This document shows, one piece after another, positions 22,040 to 62,562 of a stretch of DNA of 64,000 nucleotides; the stretch's first letter is position 1, and every line of letters starts with the position of its first letter. The stretch spans positions 2,368,001 through 2,432,000 of the forward strand of contig OZ252100.1 of NCBI GenBank assembly GCA_965248435.1. The letters run 5' to 3'. The notes beneath the pieces are model-generated. The model was not told the origin of the DNA and did not search any database. It was given only the letters and a program-made list of their open reading frames with translations. The position numbers and the translations under genes are program-made. The DNA is from Candidatus Latescibacterota bacterium. GTDB taxonomy: Bacteria > Latescibacterota > UBA2968 > GCA-2709665.

Positions 22040-22071
22040 CCCCCCTTTACTCCTTCTATCGGCCGCATAAA

Positions 22072-25107: not shown

Positions 25108-25193
25108 GCACTCGCGCGTTTCTAATATGAGATACGTTCTCGTTCTTTCTGCAATCCGCAATTGAATAACCTGACCTAGGAGAAACGACGCTC

Positions 25194-27256: not shown

Positions 27257-27276
27257 AAACTAATGCACTTGTGAAC

Positions 27277-30085: not shown

Positions 30086-30123
30086 GCGTAATCTCCTTGG
30101 TGTCACACAAAGTCGTTGTTCTT

Positions 30124-30312
30124 GGACCACGGACGACAGACCGCAGACCGCAGAGCTGTAGTCGCAGGCTTCAGCCTGCGGGACCTCGAGGTTTCACATC
30201 AGGTGAGAAACCGACTGTTCGTAGACGATTGTTAGAATCGCAGGCAGTAGTCTTCGCGAAGTGCAAATGCTCATTCATCCCGCGGTCCGCCGTCTGTGGT
30301 CCGCCGTCCGTC
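30124..30312. repeat. GAC(G/C)RCR-heptamer inverted-arm element, copy 3, with internal GTAG hairpin (30158-30180)
   Basis: GGACCACGGACGACAGACCGCAGACCGCAG; GTAGTCGCAGGCTTCAGCCTGCG; right arm GCGGTCCGCCGTCTGTGGTCCGCCGTCCGTC. Confidence 0.78.
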
Positions 30313-36247: not shown

Positions 36248-36903
36248 GTGCACAGCTCAAAACTCAGAGGGACGGACTTCCAGATCCGATATCGCGGAGA
36301 GGAGATCAGCCACGCCGATTTCTTCTCGGATCTCGCGAAAACCGACCGGCTCGGCGTGCTCGCGCCGGCGCGATACGAGGGCGCAGGGGCCGTTACCCTC
36401 ATCCTGGCCTACGTCACCGCCTTCTATGATCGCTACCGCGCGGAGGGAGACGATTTCTTCGCCTATCCGGACTTCTTTACCTTTCAAAGACGCGAGCCAA
36501 TCGCCAGCTACGGATGGCTGGACATCTCGCCGGGTCACAAGAACGTCCGCGTTCCTGACGGCGCCAACGAAACCGCTCAGGCGATCACCGATCGGGCGTG
36601 AACGTCCTGCTCGTTCCGGAAAGTGAGAATTCCCACGATCCATCATACGAGAAGGTGCAGCTAGAAAGCCTTCGCAGAAACATCAGGCGTTGTTTTGTCT
36701 ATTCACCGAGCGGCCGTGTCGACGCGGCAGACCTCGAGATCAGCAGCGGCTATTCTGAGATCCGCGATTGGATCGCCAAGATGTTCGACTCGGTCGCGGA
36801 ACTAAAATCGCAAAAAGATCAGTGGTTCGCATCTGTTGAACTGCCGCCGCTTCGCCAGTCTTTTCGCGAAGTCGAACTGAACGAAGCGCTGCGTCTCTTA
36901 TAG
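36248..36903 (+). pseudogene. Hypothetical protein split by an apparent 1-nt deletion at 36594-36596
   Basis: MHSSKLRGTDFQI...AITDR and VNVLLVP join as TDRGVNVLLVP if GGG is read as GGGG. Confidence 0.6.
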
Positions 36904-36933: not shown

Positions 36934-38402
36934 ATGAGAGTCGCCATCGGCGTTTTCTGTCACGAGACCAGCACCTTCACTCCGGTGCAGACCACTTGGG
37001 ACAATTTCCGCAACGAGCGGTTTGGCTACCTCGTCGGCGACGAGCTGATTACCACATTCAGGGGCACAGGCACATCGATCGGCGGATTCATCCAGGCCGC
37101 GGATGATCACGGTTTCGAACTCGTCCCGACCATCCTCGCCAACGCCTCCCCGAGCGCGCCGACGCCCCGCGACGTCTTCGACGCCATCCTGAACGACCTG
37201 CTGGACCGAATCGATGCGGGCGGACCGGTCGACGGTGTCCTGTTGGAGCTGCACGGCGCCATGGTCGTCGAGGGGATCGACGACGGCGACGGGCACATCT
37301 TCTCGGCCCTCCGGGAGCGCGTCGGAAAGGACGTGCCGATTCTCGCCCAGCTCGACATCCACTCCAACATGTCGCCCGAGATGGTCGAGAAGGCGGACGT
37401 ACTCATCGGCAGGGAGACCTATCCGGAAATCGATCAGGTCGAGCGCGCCCGCGAGTGCGGAGACGTATTGATGCGGATCAAAAACGACCGTGTGCGTCCG
37501 ACGATGGCCCTCTGCAGGATCCCGCTCGTCTGGGGCATGAACCAGATTACTGCGCACTCCCCCATGCGCGAGGCCATCGCAGAGCTGCACCGAATCGAGG
37601 CCCTGCCAGGCGTCGTCTGCGGCTCGATCTCCACCTGTTATCCCCTGGCCGATATCCCCACATGGGTGCCTCGACCTACATCGTCACGGACAACGATCAG
37701 GACCTCGCCCAGAAATGTGCGGATGAACTCGGTGACTGGATCTTCGAGCGCAGGGCGGACTGGCAGACCACGCGGCCCACGACGCGCGAGGCCCTGGAGC
37801 AGGCCGAGGCCGCGGGAAAATTTCCCGCGATCTTTTCAGACCGAAACGACAACACCGGCGGCGGTTCTGCCGGCGACAGCACCGGCGTCCTGCGCACCTT
37901 CATCGACGCCGGGCTCTCGGACGCCTGCATCCTCTACATCGTGGACCCCGAAGCGGTGAAGCAGTGCGAGCAGGCGGGCGAGGGCACGCGCCTGGAACTG
38001 GACGTGGGCGCGAAGTCCAGCCCCCTCCAGGGCGAGCCGGTGCGCATGGACGTGAAGGTGGTGAAGCTCTCGGACGGCTACTTCACCTACGACGGACCGA
38101 GGAACGCGGGGCTGGAGGGGTGCATGGGGCCTTCGGCCTACATCAGACAGGACGGGATCCACGTCTTGCTCGTCAGCATGAGAGAACAGCCCTTCGGCCC
38201 GGCGTTCTCGCGCACGATGGGTCTGGACCCCCAGAAGATGCGCTACATCGGGATCAAATCCACCGCTCACTTCCGCGCCGGGTTCGAATCCTGGGCCGGC
38301 TCGATCTACTCGGTCAATGAGCCCGGGATAAACAATCCGCCCGGCGGCGCTAGCGCGTTTCATAACCTCGGTCGCAAGCTGTATCCCTTTCACGATATCT
38401 AA
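36934..38402 (+). pseudogene. MlrC family (M81) metallopeptidase, frameshifted at 37656-37659
   Basis: HETSTF, LHGAMV, LDIHSN, TYPEID, then DNTGGGSAGD and IKSTAHFRAGF in the next frame; adding one C gives ADIPHMGAS. Confidence 0.85.
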
Positions 38403-38429
38403 ACGGGTACCGGGAAAAGAAAAAATGAT

Positions 38430-38556
38430 TCGCGAAATTCAAATCCCCCCTGCCCCCCTTTTTCAAAGGGGGGACATTGCTCTCAGTGAATTGGTTCCCA
38501 ATCAGAGAGTTGATTCTTCCCCCTTTCTCAAAGGGGGACTGAGGGGGATTTCAAAG
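38430..38556. repeat. Uninterrupted CCCCCTTT-N3-AAAGGGGG doublet element (empty allele)
   Basis: TCGCGAAATTCAAATCCCCCCTGCCCCCCTTTTTCAAAGGGGGG ... CCCCCTTTCTCAAAGGGGGACTGAGGGGGATTTCAAAG; ends are reverse complements of 51540-51741. Confidence 0.85.
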
Positions 38557-38607
38557 TGATAGACGCTTATCCTCTCGACCTTCGATCGATTTGAAGGAGG
38601 CCATTCG

Positions 38608-40491
38608 ATGGGCAGCATCCAAATCCGAGACAATCTCGCCACTGCCTACAGCGACGTCTATACCCCGGAAGTGATGGAGGCCCTGTCGGCACTCGCTCGA
38701 TTCAACGATGACCAGAAAGCGGTCATGGCCAAAAGAATCGAAAGAAGGGCGGAGCGCCAGAGAAACAAACAGCGCATCACCTTCCTCGATCCCGAAGAGA
38801 ACATCGAGGGGACCGACATCAACGTGGGCGACGCCAGGGCGGGCAAGTTCGTCGGCTCGGAGATTCCGCACGATCTTCAGCGACAGTGGATCCAGGGCAC
38901 AGGCCCGGCCGCGAAGCCGAACGCACCGATCGACCGAAGCATCAGAAACGTCGCTTACGCACTGCTGTCCGGCGCCGACGGCTGGATGTTCGACGGCGAA
39001 GATGCGCTCGGTCAGATCACGACGATGTCGCTCGACAACCTGAGAAACCTGAAGCTGGCTATCCAGAAGGATCCGGTCTTCCTGAAGGCTGCCGAGCAGG
39101 TCGCGAGCGAGATGAACGAATGGGCTTCAGGGTTCTTCGGTCGAGCGCTCATCGAGGACTGGGAGAAACAGCTCGATTTCACCACGAAGATCTTCCGCGC
39201 GAGGGGCCTGCATCTGGACGACCGGCACATCCGCGATTCAGACGGCGTGGCATTCTCCGCGTCGATCGCCGACATCACCCTCTACATCGTGAACAATCAC
39301 CGGCAGCTGCGCGACGCCGGGTCATCCATCGTCCTCTATCTGCCGAAGATCCAGACCGCGGAAGAGGCCGCGCTCTGGAACGACATGCTCTCGGCCCTCG
39401 AGGCCCATCTCAAGCTCCCAGAAGGCACGGTCAAAGTCTACGTCCTCGTCGAACAGCTCGAGGCGACCTTCCAGCTCATGGAAATCCGCGCGGCGCTGAG
39501 CAGGCACTTCGCCGGCTACAACACCGGGCGATGGGACTATATCAACAGCGTGGCCGACGCGATGGCGTGGGAGCAGACGTTCATCAATCCCGCGATCGAG
39601 TCCATCACGATGACCTATGGCTACATGAGGAACTACGAAGACCGGGTCCGCCGCGCCGTCAACACTGCAGACGTGAATGGTAACTTCGCGCTCTGGCAGG
39701 GCGGCATGGAGCCCAACATCCCCGTCGGGTCCAAAGAGGGCGTCGCATCCAGCATGGGAAAAGCGGTCGCGGGCGCCACACGAGAGGAGAAGGAAGGGGC
39801 CAGCGGCAAGTGGGTCGCCCACTGGAAGATGGTCCACATCGTGCGCCCCGTGTGGGAGGAAGTGGGCGAAGCCAATCAGCTCGGAAGAGAATTTCCCCCG
39901 CTCACCTACACGCAGGAAGACGCCGACGGCCTCGTGCTCCTCGAACCTGAACCCCGGACGATCCGCGGCGCGCGGAACCTCCTGAGTGTCGCACTGCAAT
40001 ACGGCAACGCATTCGGCCAGGGGCTTCAGGCGGCGGCGCTCAAGCCGGCCGACTTCTTCGGTGACGACAACGTGATGTATCTCATGGAAGACATGGCGAC
40101 CGGAGAGATTCGCCTCAGCATCCTGTGGGAGTGGCTTCACAAGGGTGGGACGCTCACGGATGACGATCCGGAGACCGGGGCGAAGTCGGGAGACGCGTTC
40201 ACGGTAGATCTGTTCCGACGCTTGCTGGCGGAGGAGTATGAGAAGCTCCTCCAGGCAAATGACAAGGATGTTCACGACGACTCAAAGGGTACCACCGTGC
40301 CCATCGCCCGGGAGATCGTGGAAACCTACGTGATGGATGAGGTGAAGGCCCCCTGGTACATCGATCTCCTGAACATCAACCTCAACAACCACGATCTGTC
40401 AATGGCCAAACAGCGTATTCGCCTCTACATGGAAGCCTTCAAGAAAGACGGCACCCGAATCACAGAGAATCTAGACTTTGTAGAAGCTTGA
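38608..40491 (+). CDS. Malate synthase
   Basis: ALLSGADGWMFDGEDA, LYLPKIQTAEEAALWN, VYVLVE, NTGRWDYI, KWVAH, LMEDMATGEIR. Confidence 0.92.
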   Translation: MGSIQIRDNLATAYSDVYTPEVMEALSALARFNDDQKAVMAKRIERRAERQRNKQRITFLDPEENIEGTDINVGDARAGKFVGSEIPHDLQRQWIQGTGPAAKPNAPIDRSIRNVAYALLSGADGWMFDGEDALGQITTMSLDNLRNLKLAIQKDPVFLKAAEQVASEMNEWASGFFGRALIEDWEKQLDFTTKIFRARGLHLDDRHIRDSDGVAFSASIADITLYIVNNHRQLRDAGSSIVLYLPKIQTAEEAALWNDMLSALEAHLKLPEGTVKVYVLVEQLEATFQLMEIRAALSRHFAGYNTGRWDYINSVADAMAWEQTFINPAIESITMTYGYMRNYEDRVRRAVNTADVNGNFALWQGGMEPNIPVGSKEGVASSMGKAVAGATREEKEGASGKWVAHWKMVHIVRPVWEEVGEANQLGREFPPLTYTQEDADGLVLLEPEPRTIRGARNLLSVALQYGNAFGQGLQAAALKPADFFGDDNVMYLMEDMATGEIRLSILWEWLHKGGTLTDDDPETGAKSGDAFTVDLFRRLLAEEYEKLLQANDKDVHDDSKGTTVPIAREIVETYVMDEVKAPWYIDLLNINLNNHDLSMAKQRIRLYMEAFKKDGTRITENLDFVEA

Positions 40492-40507
40492 GTCTGGAGA
40501 TCGAGGC

Positions 40508-42097
40508 ATGAGTATGAGCATCAAGTGCACTTCGAAAGTCCCCCGCCAGACCTTCGCGACCACACTGGAAACGCAGCAGGAGCAGTTGAAGACGGATGAG
40601 CTGATGCTGCGCTACGCGGTGTCGCGCGAACAGCACGCCGCCGATCCGTACCTGCCCGCTTACCACTTCGTCAATCCAGAAGGCCCCATGAACGACCCGA
40701 ACGGGCTCTGCCACTGGCAGGAGCGCTATCATCTCTTTTACCAGACCAAACCTCCAGAAGACCCGCGCGAGCACTGGGGCCACACGATCAGCGACGACCT
40801 GGTCCACTGGAAAGACCTCCCTCTGGCCATCCACCCCGGCATCGAAGCCGCCTGTTTCAGCGGCAGCTCGCTGGTCGAGGAAGACCGGGTCATCGCCATC
40901 TACCACGGCCTCAAGACGGGCAACATGGTCGCCGTGTCCAGCGACCCGCTCCTCCTCAACTGGGAGAAGATCCCCGGCAACCCCGTCATCCCGATCGTCG
41001 AGGTGGACGAGACGCAGCGCCCCTACCGTGTCTTCGACCCCTGCATCTGGAAAGAAGATGACGGCTACTACGCGCTGTCAGGTACCTACCTGGATGGGGC
41101 GATCCGCCACGACTGTCGGATGGCCCAGCACCTGTTCTTTTCGCAGGATCTGAAGTCCTGGACCTATACGGGAGAGTTCGTCGAAGGTGATGTCTTCACC
41201 GGGCGGGGTGAGGACGGAGCGGTTCCCTATTTCTGGCCAATCGGCGACAAGCACATCCTGTTGTTCGCCAGCCACACACGCGGGGCGCAGTATCTGCTCG
41301 GCGACTACGAAAAGGCGCGTCAGAAATTCAAACCGTTCGCGCACGGCCGGTTCAACTTTGGATGCATCCATTCCGGCGCCGTCCACGCCCCCTGCGGCAC
41401 CCCCGATGGCGAGGGCGGCGTCTACCTTATCTGCAACATCAACGACGCCAGACCGACCGAGGGCTGGAACCACCTGATGTCTCTCGTGCGTCTGCTGACC
41501 CTGCGCGAGGACAACACACTGGGCATCGAACCTGTCCGAACTGTCGAAGCACTCCGATCCGAGCACGAACGGCTCGGTGAGACCTCCCTGCCCGCAAACC
41601 GGGAGGTCGTGCTCGAGGGTGTCCAGGGGAACACGATGGAGCTCGCCGTTGAGGTCGATCCCCGTAGCGCGCGAGAGATCTGCCTCCACGTTCTGCGTTC
41701 ACCCGGCGGAGAGGAGACGACCGAGGTCAAATTCTTCCGGCGCGGCTACATGAGGACGCATAAAGAGGATGGGAAACACCATCAGGACGCGCTCGTGATC
41801 GACACGTCCCGATCGTCGCTGCTGCCCGATGTGAAAGCACGTCCTCCCGAAATCGCGCCGTTCGAGCTCCCGTCGAATGAAACACTCAAGCTTCGAATCT
41901 TCCTGGACCGAAGCGTCGTCGAGGTCTTCGCCAACGGCACGCAATGTCTCGCCCTGCGGGTCTATCCCGAGCGCAGGGACAGCGTGGGTGTGGCCATCCG
42001 CGCTCAGGGTGGAGACGCGGTCCTGCACTCGCTCGATGCGTGGCAGATGAATAGCATTTACAAGCAGACGGCGGACGACGGACGGCAGACCGCCTAA
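40508..42097 (+). CDS. Glycoside hydrolase family 32 protein
   Basis: MNDPNG, YHLFYQ, HWGH.ISDDLVHW, FSGS, C-terminal LRIFLDRSVVEVFANG. Confidence 0.9.
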   Translation: MSMSIKCTSKVPRQTFATTLETQQEQLKTDELMLRYAVSREQHAADPYLPAYHFVNPEGPMNDPNGLCHWQERYHLFYQTKPPEDPREHWGHTISDDLVHWKDLPLAIHPGIEAACFSGSSLVEEDRVIAIYHGLKTGNMVAVSSDPLLLNWEKIPGNPVIPIVEVDETQRPYRVFDPCIWKEDDGYYALSGTYLDGAIRHDCRMAQHLFFSQDLKSWTYTGEFVEGDVFTGRGEDGAVPYFWPIGDKHILLFASHTRGAQYLLGDYEKARQKFKPFAHGRFNFGCIHSGAVHAPCGTPDGEGGVYLICNINDARPTEGWNHLMSLVRLLTLREDNTLGIEPVRTVEALRSEHERLGETSLPANREVVLEGVQGNTMELAVEVDPRSAREICLHVLRSPGGEETTEVKFFRRGYMRTHKEDGKHHQDALVIDTSRSSLLPDVKARPPEIAPFELPSNETLKLRIFLDRSVVEVFANGTQCLALRVYPERRDSVGVAIRAQGGDAVLHSLDAWQMNSIYKQTADDGRQTA

Positions 42098-42189
42098 AGG
42101 CGGACGACCGACGACGGACCGCAGACCGCAGGATGAATAGTGTGATATTTCACGTTTCTAGCCGTCTGTGGTCCGTGGTCTGCGGTCGT
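42064..42189. repeat. GAC(G/C)RCR-heptamer inverted-arm element, copy 4 (overlaps the GH32 3' end)
   Basis: GCAGACGGCGGACGACGGACGGCAGACCGCC-TAAA-GGCGGACGACCGACGACGGACCGCAGACCGCAG ... GCCGTCTGTGGTCCGTGGTCTGCGGTCG. Confidence 0.8.
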
Positions 42190-42206
42190 GAAAGGCTTCT
42201 TTCATA

Positions 42207-42932
42207 GTGACAGACTACCGAGATGCCTACGGCCAGCAGCTCTACGAAGCCTACCTCCTCGAGAACGAGTTCGAGGTGATCGAGCGGCGCGACGGATACC
42301 TAGATATCTGCGACGCCACACACTATCTCTCGATGTACAAAGATTGGCCGTCTCACGAACGCAAGGCGATGCGCTACATGAAGGGAAAGGTCCTGGACAT
42401 CGGATGTGGGGCCGGGAGACACGCCCTTTACGCTCAGCACAGAGGTCACGACGTGCTGGGCGTCGACATCTCTCCTCTCGCCATCAAGGTCTGCAAGCGC
42501 CGAGGTCTCAAAAAAGCGAAGACCATGTCCATCACCCAGGTCAGTCGAAAGCTGGGCACGTTCGACACGCTTCTGATGCTCGGCAACAACTTCGGCCTCG
42601 TCGGAAACCCGAAGCGGGCCAGATGGCTGCTCCGAAGGTTCTATGGGATGACGAGCGACCAGGGAAAGATCATCGCGGGAACGCTCGATCCCTACGATAC
42701 GACCGATCGCGCTCATCTGGACTACCACAAAGAGAACCGAGACCGGGGGAGGATGGGCGGCCAGGTCCGGATGCGGATAAGGCAGGGAAGGCACGTCGGC
42801 GACTGGTTCGACTATCTCTTCGTCTCCAGGAAGGAGATGGACCGTCTCCTCAGAGACAGCGGATGGGCGGTCAGCCGATTCCTCGAGCCGTCAGGCCCGG
42901 CCTACGCCGCTATTCTGGAAAAGCGAAAGTGA
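42207..42932 (+). CDS. Class I SAM-dependent methyltransferase
   Basis: VLDIGCGAGRH, GVDIS, FDTLLMLGNNFG. Confidence 0.9.
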   Translation: MTDYRDAYGQQLYEAYLLENEFEVIERRDGYLDICDATHYLSMYKDWPSHERKAMRYMKGKVLDIGCGAGRHALYAQHRGHDVLGVDISPLAIKVCKRRGLKKAKTMSITQVSRKLGTFDTLLMLGNNFGLVGNPKRARWLLRRFYGMTSDQGKIIAGTLDPYDTTDRAHLDYHKENRDRGRMGGQVRMRIRQGRHVGDWFDYLFVSRKEMDRLLRDSGWAVSRFLEPSGPAYAAILEKRK

Positions 42933-43462
42933 CAGCGCGGGTTTCCGTCGTTCTGGCCGGGCTCACTCTGTTGGGCCTTTTCCCCGCCGAAACACAAGCC
43001 GATGAACAAACCGGACGTTCAGACGAGGATCGTTCGACGAATATACTGGCACTTGGATTCGGCCTAGATGCCGGGATGGTGGGGTTCAAGTACATGAAGC
43101 AGTCCACGGCGTCACCCGTACTCCTGGGTGTTGGCGTGGGCATAGAAGGCATTGCGCCACAGGTAGGCGTATCCCTGCTGCAATTCGAGCGCTGGGACCT
43201 GTATGGAAAGGCCTCGGTTCTAGTATCTACCTGGCATAGCGTCATCTTTTCGAAAGGCAGCGTCGTACCCGGCGTCGGCCTGGGTGTGCACCGCTGGCCC
43301 ACAGAATCTGGTCGTATTGGACTCTATCTGAATTTGGGTCTTGGACTCTTCTCACGGATTAGTGGCGAAAGCGAAGGAGGCGGTGAGTTGAGGGGAATCA
43401 TGCCTGATATACAGGTCGGATTGAGTGTGGATGGCATCCCCTGGCTGCGAAGTCGAAGGTGA
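42929..43462 (+). CDS. Putative small outer-membrane beta-barrel protein
   Basis: GTG overlapping the methyltransferase stop, signal peptide, Gly-rich alternating beta strands; the long ORF from 42188 is a shadow extension. Confidence 0.6.
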   Translation: MTARVSVVLAGLTLLGLFPAETQADEQTGRSDEDRSTNILALGFGLDAGMVGFKYMKQSTASPVLLGVGVGIEGIAPQVGVSLLQFERWDLYGKASVLVSTWHSVIFSKGSVVPGVGLGVHRWPTESGRIGLYLNLGLGLFSRISGESEGGGELRGIMPDIQVGLSVDGIPWLRSRR

Positions 43463-43481
43463 ACCCTCCAGGACGAAATGC

Positions 43482-44270
43482 ATGGACCTCGGATTGAAAG
43501 GAAAGCGGGCCATCGTCACGGGGGGTAACCGTGGCATCGGCCGGCGCTGTGCGCTGGCGCTCGCGCGCGAAGGGGCCCGCGTCTGCATCACGGCGCGCGA
43601 TCAGGCGCTCCTGGACAAGACCGCAGGCGAGATCGAAACCGCCGGCGGTGAGGGCCACACCGTCTCCGTCGACCTGACCGCCAGGGAGAGTTGCCAAACC
43701 GTCGTAACCGAGACCGTAGAGAGGTTCGGCGGCGTGGACATCCTTATCAACTGCGCCGGCGCGGCGCGAGGCGGTGACATCCTGGACCTTCCGACCGAGC
43801 AGATCGACGAGGCGCTCGGCCTGAAGAGCTACAGCTATCTCCGCATGGCCCAACTCGTCATCCCCTACATGAAGCAGAACGGATGGGGGCGCATCGTCAA
43901 CATCGCCGGCGGCGCCGGCACGAGTCCCGATCAATCCAACATCCCGGTGAGCCTCGCCAACATCACCATCCTGAACACGACGCGTGCCCTATCGGATGCC
44001 GTCTCCGGAGACGGCATCCTGGTCAACACGATCTGTCCGGGAATCACGAACACACAGCGGGCGAGAACGATGCAGCAGGCGAAAGCCGAGGAGGAAGGCG
44101 TGAGCGTCGAGACGATCCTCAACCGGATGGGAGCCAGGCTTCCCGCGGGTCGCATCGCAGAGCCGGAGGAAATCGCCAGTGTCGTCGCCTTTCTCGCTTC
44201 GGAGCCTTGCTCTTATATGTTCGGCAGTTCGATATACATGGACGGCGGCGGAAGAAGGGGGACGCCATAG
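43482..44270 (+). CDS. Short-chain dehydrogenase/reductase
   Basis: MDLGLKGKRAIVTGGNRGIG, DILINCAG, NTICPG, GRIAEPEEIA; canonical YxxxK not evident. Confidence 0.9.
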   Translation: MDLGLKGKRAIVTGGNRGIGRRCALALAREGARVCITARDQALLDKTAGEIETAGGEGHTVSVDLTARESCQTVVTETVERFGGVDILINCAGAARGGDILDLPTEQIDEALGLKSYSYLRMAQLVIPYMKQNGWGRIVNIAGGAGTSPDQSNIPVSLANITILNTTRALSDAVSGDGILVNTICPGITNTQRARTMQQAKAEEEGVSVETILNRMGARLPAGRIAEPEEIASVVAFLASEPCSYMFGSSIYMDGGGRRGTP

Positions 44271-44285
44271 GTGAGGGCGCTCGGC

Positions 44286-44370
44286 ACGACGACGGACGAC
44301 AGACCGCAGACCGCGAGATCAAAGGCGTAATTATTCTGGTTTGGCGGTCCCCGGTCCGCCGTCTGTGGTC
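44286..44370. repeat. GAC(G/C)RCR-heptamer inverted-arm element, copy 5
   Basis: ACGACGACGGACGACAGACCGCAGACCGC ... GGCGGTCCCCGGTCCGCCGTCTGTGGTC. Confidence 0.78.
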
Positions 44371-44403
44371 ATAGATCGCTTACTTTGATGGAGATTTGCT
44401 CCT

Positions 44404-45597
44404 ATGAAAATAACTGACCTAAGATGCACCATCATCGGTCGAAACCCCGTCGTCCGCATCACGACCGATGAGGGCATCAGCGGGATCGGACAGGCCGAAT
44501 ACACCAAGCCCTACATCCAGCCCCAGGTCCTCTTCTACAAGCAGTTCATTTTGGGGGAGGATCCCACGGATGTCGAACGGGTCATGCTCAAAATCCGAAG
44601 GCTCGGAAGCTTCAAACCCTGGGGCAGCGCCGTCAGCGCGATCGAGATGGCGCTCTGGGACCTCGCGGGCAAGGCGGCGGGCCTGCCCGTTTACAAGCTG
44701 TTGGGGGGGAAGATTCGCGACAGGGTTCGGGTCTACAACGGCGCGGTGCGCTTCCCCATGGCCGGCTCAACGCCCGAGGATTATGCCGACAACATGGCCA
44801 AAATGAAGGCGGCCAAAGAAGGATTCTGCATCATCAAGCAGGGCGTCGGATTCCACAGCCAGATGCCTTATCAGGTCCCGGACCTCTTCTACGGCGAAGT
44901 CAGGCACGAGGGCCAGATGTCCACCGAGCGGGGGCTTTTGACCGAACGCGGGCTGAAACGCGTCATCGCCTGCGCCGAGGCGATGAAGGAGGTCCTCGGC
45001 GACGAGATTGGTCTCGCGCTCGACTGCGGCCCGGGGTGGACGGTCCCCGACGCGATCAAACTTGCGAAGGCCCTCGAACCGCTGAACCTGATGTGGCTCG
45101 AGGACCTGATCACCGGAGACTACGTGCCCTATGTCCAAGCCGATCTGTATCGTGAGGTCACACGAAGCACATCCGTCCCGATACACACCGGCGAACAGAT
45201 CTACCTCCGGCAGAACTTCAAAGACCTGATCGAGAAACGTGCGGTGAGTATCATCGGGCCGGACCCGTGTGACATCGGCGGCATCGCGGAGCTCAAGTGG
45301 GTCGCGGAGTATGCGGATCTTCACGGCGTCCTGATGGCGCCGCACGGCGTCGCGGACGGCCTCATCGGGCTCGCCGCCCTCGTCCAGGTCTCGGCGACGC
45401 TTCCTGAAAACTACATCGCCTTCGAGTATCCGATCGGTGATCCAGAATGGTGGTACGACATCGTAGAAGGCCTCCCCGACCCGATCGTTGAAGACAGCTT
45501 CATCCAAGTCTGGGACCGGCCGGGGCTGGGTGTAGAAATCAATCCGGAAGCGGCGAAAAAATACCTGCCTGAGGGCGACGAAGGCTTCTTCGACTGA
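44404..45597 (+). CDS. Mandelate racemase/muconate lactonizing enzyme family protein
   Basis: SAIEMALWDLAGKAAGLPVYKLLGG, ALDC, WLED, TGEQ, APH, PGLGV. Confidence 0.92.
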   Translation: MKITDLRCTIIGRNPVVRITTDEGISGIGQAEYTKPYIQPQVLFYKQFILGEDPTDVERVMLKIRRLGSFKPWGSAVSAIEMALWDLAGKAAGLPVYKLLGGKIRDRVRVYNGAVRFPMAGSTPEDYADNMAKMKAAKEGFCIIKQGVGFHSQMPYQVPDLFYGEVRHEGQMSTERGLLTERGLKRVIACAEAMKEVLGDEIGLALDCGPGWTVPDAIKLAKALEPLNLMWLEDLITGDYVPYVQADLYREVTRSTSVPIHTGEQIYLRQNFKDLIEKRAVSIIGPDPCDIGGIAELKWVAEYADLHGVLMAPHGVADGLIGLAALVQVSATLPENYIAFEYPIGDPEWWYDIVEGLPDPIVEDSFIQVWDRPGLGVEINPEAAKKYLPEGDEGFFD

Positions 45598-46856
45598 TGC
45601 TGTGGATGAACGAAAGGAATCTCCTGAAGATCATCGGGCCCGGCATCCTCGTGGCGGCCACCGGCGTGGGGGCGGGCGATCTCGCCACCGGGGCATTTAC
45701 CGGATCGAAACTGGGCGTCGCGATCCTCTGGGCCGTGGTCCTGGGGGCCCTCTTCAAGTTCGTGTTGAACGAGGGGCTCACCCGCTGGCAGCTGGCCACA
45801 GGCGACACCTTGCTCGAGGGGGCGGTCACCCATCTCGGTCCGATTGCCCGGTATGGGTTTCTCGTCTACCTGCTGGCCTGGAGCTTCATGGTCGCGGCGG
45901 CCCTCATGAGTGCCTGCGGGGTCGCATTCCAGGCCATCTTTCCCCTGTTCGACGATCCGTCGACCGGTAAGATCGTCTACGGAATCAGCCTGAGCATCGT
46001 CGGCGTGATCCTGGTTCGTCTGGGCGGCTACTCGCTGTTCGAAAAGGTGATGGGCGTCTGCATCGCATTCATGTTCGTCACCGTCATCGTGACGGCCGTC
46101 CTCCTCGTCCCGAGCTGGAGGCAACTGATCGCCGGGCTCGTCGTGCCCGCCATCCCCGACCTGAACGGCGAAGGATTGTCCTGGACGATCGCCTTGATGG
46201 GCGGGGTCGGGGGCACCGTCACGGTCCTCTGCTACGGCTACTGGATCCGCGAGGAGGGGCGATTCAGCGGCGAAGACCTGTCCGTTTGCCGGATAGACCT
46301 TGCAGTCGGCTATGTGATGACCGCCCTGTTCGGCCTGGCGATGGTCGTGATCGGCAGCAGCATTCAGGTCGAAGGCGGCGGGGCCAGCCTGGTGATCAAG
46401 CTGGCGGATCGTCTCGTTGAAGAGCTGGGTCAGGTTGGAAGATGGGCGTTTCTTCTCGGGGCCTTCGGCGCCGTCTTCAGCAGCCTGCTGGGGGTCTGGC
46501 AGAGCGTCCCCTATCTCTTCGCGGACGTGATGGGCATGCGCTCCGGAGACTCGTCCACAAGAGATCGTGTTATTGATACGCGATCAAAAACATATCTTTG
46601 TTATCTGTACGGCATGGCGACGGTGCCCATGATCGGACTCTGGGTCGGGTTCGCCAGCATGCAGAAGGCATACGCCATCGTAGGCGCCCTCTTCATGCCC
46701 ATCCTGGCACTGGCGCTCCTCCTGTTGAACGGGCGCGCCAAATGGGTCGGAGAAGAATATCGAAACCACCCCACTACGTCCCTTGTGCTCATCGCCATCC
46801 TCATCTTCTTCTCGATGGCCGGATGGCTTACCGTTCGCCGAGTATTCGGGGTATGA
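45597..46856 (+). CDS. Nramp-like transporter
   Basis: GPGILVAATGVGAGDL, EGLTRWQLATG, GGVGGT; about 11 TM helices. Confidence 0.88.
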   Translation: MLWMNERNLLKIIGPGILVAATGVGAGDLATGAFTGSKLGVAILWAVVLGALFKFVLNEGLTRWQLATGDTLLEGAVTHLGPIARYGFLVYLLAWSFMVAAALMSACGVAFQAIFPLFDDPSTGKIVYGISLSIVGVILVRLGGYSLFEKVMGVCIAFMFVTVIVTAVLLVPSWRQLIAGLVVPAIPDLNGEGLSWTIALMGGVGGTVTVLCYGYWIREEGRFSGEDLSVCRIDLAVGYVMTALFGLAMVVIGSSIQVEGGGASLVIKLADRLVEELGQVGRWAFLLGAFGAVFSSLLGVWQSVPYLFADVMGMRSGDSSTRDRVIDTRSKTYLCYLYGMATVPMIGLWVGFASMQKAYAIVGALFMPILALALLLLNGRAKWVGEEYRNHPTTSLVLIAILIFFSMAGWLTVRRVFGV

Positions 46857-46914
46857 TCTGTCTAACAACCGCATCGAGCCTAGACCACGAGATACGCTTA
46901 AAAGGAGGTGCGTG

Positions 46915-47589
46915 ATGCTCTACGGAAAACTGACGAACGAAAGCGAGGGATATAGCAAAGCCCGGGCCGAGCTCCTCGAAGCGGAGATCGCCCTCAGAGA
47001 CCAGCGTGAGCGCGTCGCGGAACTCAGACGGCAGCTCCCGCTCGACTCCCAGGTGGAAGACTACCTCTTCCGCGAAGGACCCGAAGACCTCGCTGCCGAA
47101 GGGCCCATCTCCGAAGTCCGTCTTTCCGGGCTCTTCGAGAAACCGGACAAGCCCGTTATCTTCTATCAGTTCATGTATGGCGCCGCCCAGGAAGACCCCT
47201 GCCCGATGTGTTCGATGTGGATCGACGGCCTCAACGGGATCGCGACCCATCTGCAACCGCACGCCAACTTCGCCATCGTCGCCGAGGCAGAGATCGGCGA
47301 TTTGCGACAGTGGGGTCGGAAACGTGGCTGGAACAACCTCAGATTGATCTCCTGCGCCGGCTCCTCCTTCAAGACCGACCTGCAGTTCCAGGATGAGGAC
47401 GGTGACCAGTATCCAGGGGTCAGCGTCTTCGTGAAAGGCTCAGATGGATCGTTGAAACACTTCTACTCTGGGTCGGCGATCATGAAAGAGGACGAATATC
47501 GCGGCATGGATCTTATCACTCCGGTCTGGAACCTGCTGGACCTCACACCTGACGGCCGGGGTGATTGGTGGCCGAGCGTGGAAGAATAA
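46915..47589 (+). CDS. DUF899 family thioredoxin-like protein
   Basis: ARAELLEAE...RRQLP, YQFMY, PCPMCSMWID, WNLLDLTPDGR; AAGGAGG upstream. Confidence 0.9.
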   Translation: MLYGKLTNESEGYSKARAELLEAEIALRDQRERVAELRRQLPLDSQVEDYLFREGPEDLAAEGPISEVRLSGLFEKPDKPVIFYQFMYGAAQEDPCPMCSMWIDGLNGIATHLQPHANFAIVAEAEIGDLRQWGRKRGWNNLRLISCAGSSFKTDLQFQDEDGDQYPGVSVFVKGSDGSLKHFYSGSAIMKEDEYRGMDLITPVWNLLDLTPDGRGDWWPSVEE

Positions 47590-47600
47590 GGAGTGGCGCC

Positions 47601-47681
47601 ATGAGTTTCACATCTGATAAATCACTTGACCAAGGCGAGCTTCTCGATATCTACCGGAGGATGCTCACCATCCGGCGGTAA
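47601..47681 (+). pseudogene. N-terminal remnant of a 2-oxoacid/acetoin dehydrogenase E1 alpha subunit
   Basis: MSFTSDKSLDQGELLDIYRRMLTIRR* with AAGGAG; LL..Y..M..IRR is the E1-alpha first helix, normally continuing FEE. Confidence 0.55.
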
Positions 47682-47696
47682 AGCGGGAGGGATGTA

Positions 47697-48059
47697 ATGA
47701 TGTCACAAGAGACGCACTTCGACAGATCCGCGCCGGTCCTGCACGTCAGCGACATGTCGCGCTCGCTCGATTACTATCGGGATATCTTTGGCTTCAAGCC
47801 TGGCCATCTCCAACACGATCCTCCTGTGTATGCAACGCTGCGTCGAGACGAGGTCAGCCTCCATCTGGCGCTGGATCGAACCGGAAAGATAGCGGGGACC
47901 AGTTCCTGCTGTGTCTTCGTCAAAAACGTCGATGCCCTCTACAAGAGCTGTGTTGAAAACGGAGTCAAGATCGCTCGCGAAATCGAAGACTCGCCATACG
48001 GGTTGCGCGATTTCAACATCGAGGACCCTGACGGAAACATCATCCTGTTCGGTGAATGA
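47697..48059 (+). CDS. VOC/glyoxalase (bleomycin-resistance-like) protein
   Basis: PVLHVSDM..SLDYY...FGF, VDALY, PYGLRDFNIEDPDGNII. Confidence 0.9.
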   Translation: MMSQETHFDRSAPVLHVSDMSRSLDYYRDIFGFKPGHLQHDPPVYATLRRDEVSLHLALDRTGKIAGTSSCCVFVKNVDALYKSCVENGVKIAREIEDSPYGLRDFNIEDPDGNIILFGE

Positions 48060-49210
48060 TGACGATCAAATCCCTGGAAGCCATCCCCGTCGTGCTTCCA
48101 CTCGAGACCCCCTTCAAGGGGGGAACCTATACGATCCGTAACCGAAACACGATCGTCGTGGTCGTGGAAACCGATGGCGCACGCGGGGAGATTTACGGAG
48201 GGGACGAGGACGGTGAACAGGGGGCCGTTGTCGACCTGATAAACGGACCCCTCAGTGAGCATTTGGTGGGGCAGAGGGTAGCGACCCGCGACGACATCGA
48301 GCGAATCTACGTCGACCTGATGAACCTGCCCATCGACCTGGGCTATCGGGCCCTGGTCGATCTGGACATGGGGCGCCACGGCATTCATCAGCAGGCCCTG
48401 TCTCTGATCGACATCGCGCTCTGGGACGCACTGGGAAAGCACCTGCAGAAACCGGTTCACGAGCTGCTTGGAGGTGTCAGGCGGACGGAGATCCCGGTCT
48501 TTTCCATCGGCGGATATTATGAAGATGGAGACCCCGGCGCGAAGAAGGAGGAAGTTGACCGGCTTCGAGAACAGGGGCTGAGCGGGCTTAAGATGAAGGT
48601 GGGACGGGCCTCGCTTTCTGAGGATCTCGTAAGAATCCAGACGGCGCTGGATGCGGCTACTCCAGACTTTCGGATCGCGGTGGACGCGAACACGGCCTGG
48701 ACCGTGGATCAGGCACTGGAATTTTGCGAGTCGGTCAGCGATTGGCCGATCGCCTGGGTGGAAGAGCCGGTGAAATGGTACGACGGGTTGACCGGTCTGG
48801 CTCAGGTCAGAAAGACCTCGTCTATCCCCATCGTGAGTGGTCAGGGCGACATTTCCGAGTTTCGAAGCGCCGATCTCTGCCTCTACGGCGCTGTCGATCA
48901 GCTGAACACCGACGTCACGCTCGTCGGCGGGATCACCGCCTGGATGCGCGTGGCCGAGGTCGCCCGAGAGCACGACGTCAAGATGGGCCATCACGAGGAA
49001 CCCCAGGTCGCCCTCACCCTGTTGTCCGTCATCGACGAAATCGGGCCGGTGGAGATTCTGGCCGACGAGAAGCGGGACCCGCTGTGGCCGAAGATCCTCA
49101 AAGACTCGCCCAGGCCGGCGGACGGAAAGCTATCCGTTCCGACCGGTCCCGGACTGGGCCTCGACCTGAACTGGGATTTGATCGAACAATATTCTGCGAG
49201 GTCAATCTGA
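48056..49210 (+). CDS. Mandelate racemase/muconate lactonizing enzyme family protein
   Basis: IDIALWDALGK, KMKVG, VDAN, WVEEP, GHH, PTGPGLG. Confidence 0.92.
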   Translation: MMTIKSLEAIPVVLPLETPFKGGTYTIRNRNTIVVVVETDGARGEIYGGDEDGEQGAVVDLINGPLSEHLVGQRVATRDDIERIYVDLMNLPIDLGYRALVDLDMGRHGIHQQALSLIDIALWDALGKHLQKPVHELLGGVRRTEIPVFSIGGYYEDGDPGAKKEEVDRLREQGLSGLKMKVGRASLSEDLVRIQTALDAATPDFRIAVDANTAWTVDQALEFCESVSDWPIAWVEEPVKWYDGLTGLAQVRKTSSIPIVSGQGDISEFRSADLCLYGAVDQLNTDVTLVGGITAWMRVAEVAREHDVKMGHHEEPQVALTLLSVIDEIGPVEILADEKRDPLWPKILKDSPRPADGKLSVPTGPGLGLDLNWDLIEQYSARSI

Positions 49211-49239
49211 GTACCGTCGTTCGTCGATCGTCGCTTACA

Positions 49240-49357
49240 GACCCCTCCCTCGTTCCCTCCCCTAAAGGGGAGGGAAGACAGAAGCGGTGCTCTTGGATCT
49301 ACCAGAGGAAATCATCTCCCCCCTCCCTTTAGGGAAGGGGGGCCGGGGGGGTTAGGT
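49240..49357. repeat. CCCTCCCC-N-GGGGAGGG doublet palindromic element
   Basis: TTCCCTCCCC-TAAA-GGGGAGGGAA and CCCCCCTCCCT-TT-AGGGAAGGGGGG with ACCCCTCCC / GGGGGGGTTAGGT flanks. Confidence 0.7.
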
Positions 49358-49402
49358 CCCAAATCCGCAACACGCAATTGAATCACGCCATAAAGGTTAG
49401 CC

Positions 49403-49742
49403 ATGCGCTTTATATCCACGAATGATGGCAGCTGCATCGTGTTCATGGACCCGCTAACCGTCGAACATTTGCAGAATCAGGTGGACGTGCTTTTAGACAC
49501 GCAGGTGGACACCCTGTGTTACACCGTGGGTCTGCCTGGCGCCTACGGAATGGCGAACCCTGCCGGATATTTCCGGCATGATGTATCTCGAGACGCGTCC
49601 CCTCCCCTTCTTAGCGTGCGAGTTGACGCCCGAGTTGACACAGGTGGGTCCAGCCGAGTTGTCGATCAGAGTGGTGGAACGAAACCCGGGGATCGCCACG
49701 CGGCTTACCGTGCGCGGTGTGAACATCCGAGTCAAGGCATGA
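49403..49742 (+). pseudogene. Internally deleted paralog of the downstream GH10-like gene
   Basis: First ~48 codons match the N-terminus of 49957; from ~49545 another frame reads EWRTLPDISG...CELTPEL...VVERNPGIATRLTVRGVNIRVKA*, matching its C-terminus. Confidence 0.85.
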
Positions 49743-49782
49743 CCTTACTCGTCGCTTTGTTTATTGCCGCCTGTTTCTTCTT

Positions 49783-49869
49783 GATTCTGGAGTATTGCAG
49801 TACTGGAGTAGTGGAGTATTGTAAAATCTGCTTTTCCATTACTCCAACACTCCATTACTCCATTCCCCA
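49783..49869. repeat. GGAGTRTT-octamer inverted-arm element, copy 2
   Basis: GATTCTGGAGTATTGCAGTACTGGAGTAGTGGAGTATTG ... CCATTACTCCAACACTCCATTACTCCATTCCCCA. Confidence 0.8.
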
Positions 49870-49956
49870 TCCATCGCGATCGTGTTGTGCGTTCCTCTGC
49901 GTCCTCCGGTCTATGCGGTGATGCCTTTTCAATCTCAAATCCGCTGAGAGGTAACC

Positions 49957-51495
49957 ATGCGTTTCATCTTGACCTGTGACGGCAGCTGCGTTGCGTTCAG
50001 GGATCCGCTGACCGTCGAACACCTGCAGAAGCAGGTGGACGTGCTTGTAGACACACAGGTGGACACTCTGTGCTACAACATCGGGTTACCCGGGGCGTAT
50101 GAATATGCCACGAAAGTGGGCACGCGGTATGGCCACGGGATGGAAAAGATGCCCGACGTCTCCTCCTACCGTGAAAGGCAGAATCTCGAAGCATTCTTTC
50201 AGCAGGGCATCGATCCGCTCCGGGTCCTGCTCGACCGCGGAATGGAAAAGGGTCTCAAGGTCTTTCCTGACATACGGATCTACGACTGTCAGTGCGGAAT
50301 CGATTTCGATCCCATGAATCGCGATCATCCGGACTGGCGGATCGGAGAACACGCCCGCTACGGTCCCGCATCGCTCATCTACGGGACCCGAGTCCCCGAC
50401 GCATACAAGAACCCCAACTACACCTGGCAGCTGGACTTCGCACATCCCGAAGTTCGACAGCGAACAATCGACATCGCCGAGGAACTGCTCACCTATCAGA
50501 TCGAAGGCCTGCAGCTGGACTTCCAGCGTCGACCCAACTACTTCAAGCCGGACGAGGCGGTCGATAACCGACACCTGATGACAGACATGGTGCGCGCGAT
50601 TCGTGCCAGCGTTCGAAAAGCCGAACAGGAGCAGGGCAGACCGGTGGAACTGCTGTGTCGGGTATGGGCGAACCTGGAGGACTGCTGGCATCTGGGTATG
50701 GATGTCAGGACGTGGGTCGAAGAGGGACTGATCGATCTCTTGATCCCGACCCATCACCTCTGCTTCGCGATCGACGCGCCCCTCGAGGAGTTTGTTGAGC
50801 TGACCAGGGACACACCGGTCAAGGTCTTGATGAACTACCTCCCGATCTTCGATTGGCCCAGGACGACCAGCGTCAGCCATCGCCCCGACCAGAAGCCTTC
50901 GTTCGCGGGCGTGCAGCTTCGGTCCCTGGATCTGGAATACGTACTGACCGGAGAGATGTGGCACGCCGGCGCCCAGATGGCCTTCGCCAAAGGCGCCGAC
51001 GGGCTGTCTATCTTCAACCTGAACCCGGCAGATTACGATGAGGGCTGGGACCTGAGCTTCCTGAGCGAGATCGCAGACCGGGACGTCGTGGCCCGGCACG
51101 ACAAGCTCTATCCCTTCATCACGGGCGAGTCGGCGAATCGATCCCGGAGCCTCAGTCGCAATGAGCCGGTAACCTATAACCTCTTCGTGGCTGAGGATCC
51201 GGCCGCTGTCGCGAAAATGACCCTCGAGGTACATATCGAAGAGCTTACGCGAGAGGATCGGCTCGAGTTTACCCTGGACGGCAAACCACTCCCGATGGAA
51301 ATTCGAACCCTTCCGGATGCATCAGGCGGCATGCACCTCCCCGGGCATCGTCCTCACCACTTCTTCGAGTGCGAGCTGACGCCCGAGTTGGTAGAGCTGG
51401 GCCCGTGCGAATTGGCGATCGGAGTGGTAGAACGAAACCCGGAGATACTTTCGCGGCTTACAGTGCTGGGTGTGAACATCAGGGTCAATCCCTGA
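49957..51495 (+). CDS. Putative glycoside hydrolase, GH10-like (GHL10/DUF187-type) TIM barrel
   Basis: GIDPLRVL, HPDWRIG, LDFAHPEVR, IEGLQLDFQR, GMDVRTWVEEGLID, GADGLSIFN. Confidence 0.75.
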   Translation: MRFILTCDGSCVAFRDPLTVEHLQKQVDVLVDTQVDTLCYNIGLPGAYEYATKVGTRYGHGMEKMPDVSSYRERQNLEAFFQQGIDPLRVLLDRGMEKGLKVFPDIRIYDCQCGIDFDPMNRDHPDWRIGEHARYGPASLIYGTRVPDAYKNPNYTWQLDFAHPEVRQRTIDIAEELLTYQIEGLQLDFQRRPNYFKPDEAVDNRHLMTDMVRAIRASVRKAEQEQGRPVELLCRVWANLEDCWHLGMDVRTWVEEGLIDLLIPTHHLCFAIDAPLEEFVELTRDTPVKVLMNYLPIFDWPRTTSVSHRPDQKPSFAGVQLRSLDLEYVLTGEMWHAGAQMAFAKGADGLSIFNLNPADYDEGWDLSFLSEIADRDVVARHDKLYPFITGESANRSRSLSRNEPVTYNLFVAEDPAAVAKMTLEVHIEELTREDRLEFTLDGKPLPMEIRTLPDASGGMHLPGHRPHHFFECELTPELVELGPCELAIGVVERNPEILSRLTVLGVNIRVNP

Positions 51496-51539
51496 TGCCC
51501 GGTTCGCGATTTATGAGCGAATGATGTCCGTTCACATTG

Positions 51540-51741
51540 TGAAAATCCCCCTCAATCCCTCCCTCGACTCGCATGCTCGCTCACCTCGATACGGCCCTCC
51601 GGGCCTACTCGGTGCAGGCGGGACAGGCCTTTTCCAAAGGGGGAAGATTGCTCTTCTTTAGAGATTATAGATTCCTCCCCTCCCTCGGCAAGCTCGGGAC
51701 ATGCTTTCGTAAAGGGGGCAGGGGGGATTTGAATTTCGCGA
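51540..51741. repeat. CCCCCTTT-N3-AAAGGGGG doublet element with nested inserts (B 51560-51627 containing C 51582-51618; B' 51681-51703)
   Basis: Direct comparison with 1248-1358 and with the empty allele at 38430-38556. Confidence 0.88.
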
Positions 51742-51775
51742 TGGCAAAACGACGGATTCAGGAGACTGACGGATT

Positions 51776-52681
51776 ATGACAACTGAGAAAGACGCAAAGC
51801 CCGTCGTCTACATCGACGGCGAGTTTTACGGGGAAAGCGACGCGAAGATCTCCGTCTTCGACCACGCCCTCCTCTACGGAGATGCCATCTACGAAACCTG
51901 CTGCGCCTGGAACGGCGCAATCTTCAAGCTGGACAGGCATATCGACAGGCTGTTCGAATCGGCCCACGCGGTGAAACTCCAGGTCCCCCTTTCCAAGGCC
52001 GAGTTGAAAGAGGTCGCCGTGGAAACCGTCCGACGCAGTAATCTCAAGAATGCCTACGTCAAGATCATCGCCACGCGAGGCGTAGGCGAACAGCCGACCA
52101 TAAGCCCCTACAACACGACACCCAGCATCATCGTCTTCGCCTGGCCCTACCTCAGCCTCGTAGCCGGCGATGTGGATCTGAAGGGGATGCGCGTCAAAGT
52201 CGCCTCCTGGCGACGCATTCCGGACATCTGCCTGCCATCGAAGGTGAAGAGCATCAACTACCTGAATCACGTTCTCATGCGCATGGAGGCGAACGAGTCC
52301 GGCTACGACGACGCGCTGGAACTCGGGACGGACGGTGATGTCACCGAAGCCCCGGGCTACAACGTCTTCGCCGTGAAACGCAGCGCCATCCAAACTCCGT
52401 CGAACAACATCCTCGTCGGCATTACCCGCGAGACCGTCCTCGAACTCGCGGCAGAAGCGGGAATCTCCGTGATCGAGGGCCAGCTCACCGTCTTCGATTT
52501 CTACAACGCCGATGAGGTGTTCTTCTCAAGCTCCGCTGGCGGCATCTTCCCGGTCAGCGAAATCGACGGGCGCGTGATCGGGAATGACGGGAAGCCGGGG
52601 CCTGTTACCGTCCGAATTCGCGACGGATATCAGGCGCTGCTCGAAAGCCGCGCCAAGAGCACACCTGTCTACCCGGCCTGA
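51776..52681 (+). CDS. Class IV PLP aminotransferase (branched-chain/D-amino acid type)
   Basis: ISVFDHALLYGDAIYE, HIDRLFESA, KSINYL, ILVGITR, ADEVF. Confidence 0.92.
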   Translation: MTTEKDAKPVVYIDGEFYGESDAKISVFDHALLYGDAIYETCCAWNGAIFKLDRHIDRLFESAHAVKLQVPLSKAELKEVAVETVRRSNLKNAYVKIIATRGVGEQPTISPYNTTPSIIVFAWPYLSLVAGDVDLKGMRVKVASWRRIPDICLPSKVKSINYLNHVLMRMEANESGYDDALELGTDGDVTEAPGYNVFAVKRSAIQTPSNNILVGITRETVLELAAEAGISVIEGQLTVFDFYNADEVFFSSSAGGIFPVSEIDGRVIGNDGKPGPVTVRIRDGYQALLESRAKSTPVYPA

Positions 52682-61569: not shown

Positions 61570-61610
61570 AACTTGGTGATTGAACGTGTGATGTGATGAA
61601 TTGTGCTTCA

Positions 61611-61640
61611 GTCCGCAATCCAAAATTCGCAATCCGCAAT
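61611..61640 (+). repeat. AATCCGC heptamer tract (also 12395-12422 minus, 25151-25167, 49361-49383, 62503-62535)
   Basis: GTCCGCAATCCAAAATTCGCAATCCGCAAT. Confidence 0.7.
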
Positions 61641-61655
61641 TTCCTCGCGATTCGC

Positions 61656-62470: not shown

Positions 62471-62562
62471 CCGAAAGATGAAGGCCTGCGGTGAATGCCT
62501 TCCAATCCGCAATCCCAATTCCGCAATCCGCAATTGGATGACGATTCACGAACGACGGCTCC

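Follow-up and report, generated by a model that had tools for sequence, protein, structure and literature searches.

Introduction

Elements of the IS200/IS605 family carry two different end hairpins, have a conserved target 5' of the left end and show a lagging-strand insertion bias, and RPEs, small palindromic repeats of ~100-150 nt, are restricted to Rickettsia. Small dispersed repeats (SDRs) nest in other repeats; SDR4-6, including the 21-nt SDR5, were reportedly described in Nostocaceae cyanobacteria by Elhai and colleagues in 2008. In the passages of later, citing papers that take up these repeats (PMC4390886, PMC5861425, PMC13756078), SDR5 is described as a module of 21 nt whose insertion point in the HIP1 palindrome lies precisely between bases 3 and 4, SDRs as a group (21-27 nt) are regarded as mobile with function and mechanism unsolved, and a statement in one of these papers confines them to Nostocaceae. 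SDRs are named among repeats of unknown origin in the relevant part of Bertels and Rainey 2011. For REPs, the sections of Di Nocera et al. 2013 (PMC3733652) on their classification sort them into GTAG- and CGTC-tagged superfamilies, place some families inside other palindromes (T. roseum GTAG-23 in CCGSSCC-n3,4-GGSSCGG) and report some copies in frame within ORFs. TnpA-REP is described, in the excerpts available, as requiring the GTAG tetranucleotide (PMC8266576) and as cutting between C and T, C^T (PMC3333891).

Here we analysed a 64-kb stretch of DNA (the window; G000:C1:2368001-2432000) from a 5.67-Mb bacterial genome in two contigs, in which a preliminary description had reported palindromic inserts nested within one another. 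These inserts, termed B, B' and C, are closest to the cyanobacterial SDRs and to REPs. The observation was confirmed, and it extends further than the preliminary description had claimed.

Results

Nested inserts in host element A

Direct reading of the window identified host element A as a larger palindrome that is intact and empty at 38430-38556 (+ strand), where outer arms AAATCCCCCC... and ...GGGGGATTT enclose two hairpins (38453-38473 and 38519-38537) of the form C5-6 T3-5 N A3 G5-6. As single-stranded DNA the intact host hairpin (hairpin 1 of this copy) folds at -9.3 kcal/mol (z -2.4). The same element recurs in the opposite orientation at 51540-51741, its arm at 51711-51741 being 97% complementary to 38430-38460 (inverted repeat I1). 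In this second copy, hairpin 1 is split after its third C by the 31-nt insert B, B is itself split by the 37-nt insert C, and hairpin 2 is split after its fourth C by the 23-nt insert B'.

Along the + strand, the 51.5-kb copy begins with the outer arm AAAATCCCCCTCAATCCC and the first three C of hairpin 1 (51542-51559), an end that recurs in many A copies, and continues with the 5' part of B (22 of its 31 nt; 51560-51581), all of C (51582-51618), the 3' part of B (CGGGACAGG; 51619-51627) and the rest of hairpin 1 (CCTTTTCCAAAGGGGG; 51628-51643). A spacer without assigned strand (51644-51676) then separates the two host hairpins, and hairpin 2 follows as a C run (51677-51680), B' (TCCCTCGGCAAGCTCGGGACATG; 51681-51703), the remainder of the hairpin (CTTTCGTAAAGGGGG; 51704-51718) and the other outer arm (51719-51741). 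A half copy of host A at 1248-1358, likewise on the + strand, bears the same B+C composite, with an outer arm at 1250-1268, the composite at 1269-1336 (B at 1269-1290 and 1328-1336, split by C at 1291-1327) and the rest of the host hairpin (CCTTTTTCAAAGGGGG) at 1337-1352. Over 117 nt this half copy and the filled 51.5-kb copy share 92% identity (family D5), which bears out the earlier proposal that the composite was copied as one unit. When the three window copies were aligned with MAFFT, the gap at B' was well placed and the larger insert misaligned; boundaries were accordingly taken from direct reading together with a genome-wide hairpin census (for the host hairpin remnants and the hairpin 2 C run), from direct reading and alignment (for the spacer) and from repeat comparison as well (for the half copy).

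The positions and sequences of the nested inserts and of the empty host all proved to be as the preliminary description had given them. All three places are intergenic, the neighbours being a 512-aa ORF and a class IV aminotransferase gene in one case, MlrC-like and malate synthase-like genes in another, and convergent genes in the third. No target duplication is visible beside the inserts at the window sites, because the inserts begin with T or C and end with G, with C on both sides; the same holds for a filled/empty pair of another host (below), and duplication-free insertion was upheld.

Other repeats occur in the window as well. Separate repeats with GACGGCAGAC/GTCTGCCGTC-like words in both orientations lie at 22068-22103, 27269-27371, 30117-30308, 42059-42187 and 44280-44370, and the family defined by these words hosts CCCC-stem units elsewhere in the genome. 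Intergenic repeats at 25011-25108 and 49752-49868, as well as at 25147-25170, 36753-36776, 49363-49386, 61609-61653 and 62503-62547, belong to families built on an inverted repeat of GGAGTATTGCAGTAATGGAGTG-like words and on CCGCAATCCGCAATTG-like words. Direct repeats of 147-148 nt with 78% identity (49398-49545/49952-50099 and 49596-49742/51349-51495) link the region upstream of the 512-aa ORF (49957-51495) to its start and end, and these sequences suggest a partial duplicate of the gene beside it.

Filled and empty hosts across the genome

A census of A-type hairpins on the + strand of the genome revealed 43 that are intact and 18 filled with an insert of TCG...CTC grammar, the inserts measuring 23 nt (8 hairpins), 31 nt (5), 32 nt (1) or 68 nt, the size of B+C (4); two further A-type hairpins, outside the count of 18, hold degenerate B' copies. 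The preliminary description had stated that excision restores the host exactly. This held at all three window sites, where removing the inserts in silico leaves equal C and G runs, but genome-wide equal runs were restored in only 10 of the 18 filled hairpins (six were left with one C over, one with one short and one with two over), and the unit boundary may therefore vary by one C. For comparison, C and G runs are equal in 32 of the 43 intact A-type hairpins.

The inserts are separable and have independent sites, as had been proposed, and B and C were found genome-wide not to be tied together in a single composite. Of the sites of B, three lack C and four contain it, and C-like units lie inside a B'-like unit of another host (C1:3695814), inside a B-like unit outside host A (C1:2364875) and alone in non-repeated DNA (C1:4998874). 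Exact B' is present seven times, five times in A-type hairpins (three in one A end, one in the other end and one in an inner arm) and twice in H3-type hairpins, where its junction reads CCCC^CTTCCCTAAAGGGAAGGGGG; at the junction these two host families have only CCCC^CT in common. Near variants of B' occupy CCTCCCC and CCTCTCCC hairpin hosts.

A further host, the hairpin H2 (CTTTTCTTG...CAAGAAAAG), is filled by a CCCT-stem unit at GGCCTA^CTTTTC in 10 of its 58 copies and empty in the other 48. When a filled and an empty H2 copy were aligned, they differed at one of the 57 positions upstream and at none of 26 downstream, with a clean gap of 23 columns between. Altogether this genome holds ~45 units belonging to several families, and many copies clearly spread by hitch-hiking on their hosts, the two filled window copies representing one composite.

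A-type hairpins also receive larger elements. Outside the window, at G000:C1:1406900-1408450 (L249) and ~14 further places, A-type hairpin loops are occupied by an ISL3-family IS, which encodes a 404-aa transposase (DDE_Tnp_ISL3, 223 bits), and by ~440-nt derivatives sharing its ends, with duplication of the TTTnnAAA centre. Since both the IS and the units sit in A-type hairpins, host A is targeted by two unrelated kinds of insertion.

A shared grammar with covarying stems

B, B' and C had been described as sharing one grammar and as always being followed by C. We wrote the grammar as stem-TCG-loop-CTC-stem-CAKG, then C, and searched the genome with N4-TCG-N4-7-CTC-N4-CAKG, which gave 178 matches, 33 of them with all four outer pairs complementary, compared with none of 61 matches to a reversed-sequence control. 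The grammar itself therefore stood, while 'always' did not quite: the base 3' of the fully paired units is C in 31 of 33. Their outer stems are TCCC (14), CCCT (14), CCCC (4) and one other. Sorting by outer stem delimits sister families CCCT/AGGG (12 exact copies), CCCC/GGGG and CACC/GGTG, the last being C, and with other tails further outer stems TTCC/GGAA and TGCC/GGCA appear.

Folded as DNA, B' alone is weak, reaching -1.2 and -1.9 kcal/mol, which shuffled sequences equal; the host hairpin drops from -9.3 to -4.9 kcal/mol once B' is inserted. Folding of the 202-nt composite was uninformative, neither strand surpassing its shuffles (z -0.06 and -0.39). Support for the unit hairpin therefore comes from outer-stem covariation and not from predicted stability. 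On the complementary strand TCG/CTC becomes GAG/CGA, which could form predicted tandem G-A pairs.

An ORF for a 1078-aa propeller-repeat protein contains two CCCT-family units of 24 nt, both in frame and on its coding strand (G000:C1:5131002-5134235, - strand). They occupy loops between repeats, neighbouring repeats are without them, and the arrangement resembles RPE and REP insertions in genes.

Alleles in wild strains and a sister species

Filled and empty orthologous sites had been proposed as a check, and we compared contigs of four marine metagenome runs with window positions 38000-52400. One empty wild-strain allele was found by its breakpoints and length. A 1565-nt contig of run X7 (record 27) matches 50425-51559 with 43 differences and 51704-52080 with 23 differences, so that the match ends at the base before B and restarts at the base after B'. 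Between these points the contig has 53 letters where the window has 144, a deficit of 91 that equals 31+37+23. We infer from the two breakpoints and the length, as opposed to the letters themselves, that the X7 allele carries the uninterrupted host core. In a contig of run X6, a single letter separates the matches to 51581 and 51620, which corresponds to B without C, at a locus that may be paralogous. Scans of the metagenome contigs for orthologous loci with a degenerate aminotransferase-start pattern, and for C with a gapped pattern, gave no match.

In the sister species G001, whose genes are 80-87% identical, host A is absent from the orthologous spacer upstream of the aminotransferase gene, and C is absent from the orthologue of the solitary C site, the spacers being too diverged for base-exact comparison. 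Elsewhere G001 has a diverged B+C composite in an A-type hairpin, as well as C-like cores, contained in a longer repeat, whose outer stem differs yet remains complementary.

Distribution across phyla and viral contigs

The degenerate 23-nt pattern YCCYTCGRCARGCTCRGGRCAKG was found exactly in at least 123 species-genome stretches (L018-L140), against a chance expectation, by our own arithmetic, of ~2 in 596 billion bases (both strands, uniform base frequencies). The 97 titles listed among these matches include Acidobacteriota, Chloroflexota, Planctomycetota, several Proteobacteria classes, Bacteroidota, Nitrospirales, Nitrospinaceae, candidate-phyla-radiation lineages, Chlamydiota, Actinomycetota and others, and the pattern is also present in 84 viral-contig stretches (L165-L244). 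Of 168 genomes from the phylum to which the window belongs, 17 contain one match or more (reversed-pattern control, 0 of 168), more than three copies occurring only in this genome (25) and in one other of the order (18); the sister species G001 has no exact copy. This patchy distribution resembles that of a mobile element.

In the 124 cross-phylum copies whose flanks were long enough, C follows the unit 110 times and T occupies the second position 80 times; the 5' flank is not conserved. A stem of at least 6 bases spans the junction in 23 of the 124, compared with 10 when flanks were swapped. Several of these loci are tandem arrays with a 24-nt period, or hold units within longer palindromes or REP loops; some copies were seen inside longer palindromes whose arms resemble the unit itself. 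An acidobacterial MAG (G168, reached through L041) carries ~30 unit copies in one fixed host, ATCCCCA^CTTTCTCG, with variable loops, constant host and junctions, and few or no empty sites; in that genome it is therefore the composite that multiplied. The surroundings of ten single-copy units in relatives were checked for a 'master' gene; none was common to them, and all lie in small intergenic palindromes or REP loops.

Candidate mobilising activities and rival explanations

The preliminary description had attributed the units to HUH-type transposition, and in this reading they would be REP-like ends that a Y1 HUH transposase (IS200/IS605 TnpA or TnpA-REP/RAYT), encoded elsewhere in the genome, moves in single-stranded form. 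Several features agree with it: insertion is duplication-free, and the complementary strand of the units reads CCTG/CATG followed by an imperfect hairpin with a conserved two-base mismatch, a layout like that of group 2 REPs, which, in the portion of PMC8266576 describing them, consist of GTAG and a stem with a required bulge. The genome does contain five Y1_Tnp loci, two IS200-like (each gene with its own end hairpins), two RAYT-like and one truncated. The RAYT-like genes (L003 and L005; 168 and 189 aa), both outside the window, are each flanked by their own REP family, one locus having three tandem copies of GTAGGAGC-type REPs downstream and the other a CACGGGCGG...CCGCCCGTG palindrome on either side, and they look like classical REPtrons unrelated to B, B' and C.

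None of the five Y1 loci, however, is flanked by a unit of the B/B'/C grammar, as the preliminary description had suggested looking for; each has different hairpins or REPs instead. Nor does a unit pair bracket any gene; the 47 units form four neighbouring pairs less than 4 kb apart, all in direct orientation. Strand bias is likewise absent, with 25 units on the leading and 22 on the lagging strand (n=47; replichores by cumulative GC skew), although hitch-hiking on hosts could blur such a bias. Across 41 relatives, Y1 matches occur in 27 and their counts do not track unit counts, G004 having 32 Y1 matches and no units and G010, G016, G030 and G037 having no Y1 match and one unit each. The tag is not GTAG, and the junctions are G^C, where a C^T reading predicts 94 missing bases in the empty allele and 91 were seen. 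The relation to HUH systems is therefore, so far, one of resemblance. None of these sequence comparisons points to HUH, the attribution is not supported by them, and we regard mobilisation by such a transposase as unlikely. In a separate comparison, a topoisomerase-IA-like junction rule was rejected: this rule calls for C at -4, which is present in only 40 of the 124 cross-phylum copies.

We also weighed accounts that dispense with transposition of the units. If they had no dedicated mobility, they would have spread only as passengers of their hosts and through exchange between similar palindromes (recombination, gene conversion or template switching), and empty sites would have arisen by hairpin-stimulated deletion; composites copied whole, the unit fixed within a larger repeat in the acidobacterial MAG, and the capacity of conversion among A copies to turn empty hairpins into filled ones all fit this account. 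It is nonetheless improbable, given that identical B' sits in host families with only CCCC^CT in common, that C is found in unrelated contexts including unique DNA, that the inserts have no flanking direct repeats to drive slippage, and that the recurrence of one 23-nt sequence in many phyla and in viral contigs calls for either transfer or a common constraint. In another account the units would be selected motifs, for example sites bound by a protein or RNA or DNA structures that serve as terminators or stabilisers, conserved by function and not by mobility; the intergenic position of all three window copies, the conservation of sequence across phyla and the covarying stems speak for this. 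Yet the units have no preferred orientation relative to ORFs (7 sense and 12 antisense between tandem ORFs, under a crude ORF model); an Rfam search gave no convincing family for the locus, its sole hit across the window being a tRNA; units are present or absent at otherwise identical repeats and at the orthologous locus, which argues against a needed local role; insertion weakens the host hairpin; and two units lie in frame inside a protein gene. We hold a functional motif to be very improbable. We give hardly any credence to the inserts being footprints of the ISL3-family IS that also targets host A, or assembly artefacts. A total of 29 ends of ISL3-type IS and their short derivatives do abut A-type hairpins, but the IS enters the hairpin loop with a TTTnnAAA duplication, whereas the units enter the C run without one and are unrelated in sequence to the IS ends; as to artefacts, the units recur in independent assemblies and metagenome contigs.

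Discussion

Comparison with known systems

Set beside the described SDRs, the units share a very small size (21-27 nt in SDRs), a precise position inside a palindrome and the occurrence of filled and empty sites, which we observed here and which is taken for SDRs from the citing papers. They differ in occurrence, SDRs being, as far as the citing text goes, confined to Nostocaceae, whereas the units are found in a non-cyanobacterial marine genome and in many phyla. The likeness to REPs and REPINs covers size (20-40 nt), a conserved tetranucleotide on one side, intergenic location, high copy number and an imperfect palindrome with conserved stem mismatches, seen in the units as a 4-bp covarying stem and a TCG/CTC mismatch pair. 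In contrast to REPs, with their GTAG or CGTC tag, the units have the tag CCTG/CATG (CAGG/CATG ends; in 33 of 33 units, and likewise in every cross-phylum copy, by construction of the patterns), they are singlets and not doublets, they have no cognate RAYT locus (the two RAYT-like genes carry other REPs) and their junctions, known from sequence only, are not C^T.

With IS200/IS605 elements the units have in common duplication-free insertion, hairpin ends and a terminal tetranucleotide, but they possess a single hairpin, a conserved base only on the 3' side and no strand bias. No conserved 5' target tetra- or pentanucleotide of the IS200/IS605 type emerged from the 124 cross-phylum copies, although the other strand can be read as having a weak AG^ target. 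Like RPEs, the units are small palindromic repeats that can be inserted in frame in protein genes, although RPEs are longer and limited to Rickettsia. The hallmarks of MITEs derived from DDE transposons are lacking, as there is no target duplication and no likeness to the ISL3 ends in A hairpins. In the open full-text literature, searches with the unit strings and on REP-like insertions nested in other repeats found no description. Elements of this kind are known (very small mobile repeats, REP-like modules), but no account of the present family, of nesting to three levels together with natural empty alleles, or of a reach across phyla appears to exist in the open literature searched.

A probable superfamily of very small insertion modules

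The present data demonstrate that the units are separable, that paralogous sites exist in filled and empty form, that 23, 31 or 37 nt are precisely present or absent without duplication, that C follows the units, that they favour the arms and loops of palindromes, that their stems covary and that they are scattered patchily over phyla; to this they add one orthologous empty allele, recognised by its breakpoints and length. As the account that best fits them, we consider it probable that B, B' and C are members of one superfamily of non-autonomous insertion modules, very small at 23-37 nt, that enter 5' of a C without duplication. Each module would be a short hairpin with a covarying 4-bp outer stem, a TCG...CTC mismatch pair (GAG...CGA on the opposite strand) and a CAGG or CATG 3' tail, and would enter immediately 5' of C without duplicating its target. 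Its preferred landing place would be one arm or the loop of an existing palindrome, as suggested by CCCC^CTTT in host A, GGCCTA^CTTTTC in H2 and GCT^CGGGA inside B. Repeated rounds of insertion would then yield the three-level nesting, and host and cargo would be multiplied passively as one piece. The moving form may be a folded single strand, transferred by a trans-acting strand-transferase into an extruded or replicating palindrome, and the direction of change would be insertion and not precise loss. For the strand-transfer step itself, a Y1 HUH nuclease is the best known candidate enzyme, although we name it only tentatively.

A wider reading is possible, although we put it forward as speculation. 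The 23-24 nt unit (YCCYTCGRCARGCTCRGGRCAKG then C) and its relatives may form a pan-bacterial superfamily, the smallest known mobile DNA, that moved between phyla also on phage DNA and is inserted 5' of C into extruded palindromes by an activity that has so far no link to a transposase family, perhaps a widely conserved single-strand DNA enzyme, building nested mosaics and occasionally being tolerated in frame in proteins.

Very small mobile repeats had previously been reported only from one cyanobacterial family, according to the passage of the citing paper that addresses their range. The system offered here is a cultured marine bacterium with ~45 units, many empty and filled hairpins, a natural empty allele and a unit that crosses phyla and occurs in viral contigs, and with it the question of what moves 23-nt DNA becomes directly testable. 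Units of this kind account for one way in which spurious conserved peptides and in-frame insertions come to appear in annotated proteins; their nesting shows how complex intergenic repeat mosaics are assembled stepwise.
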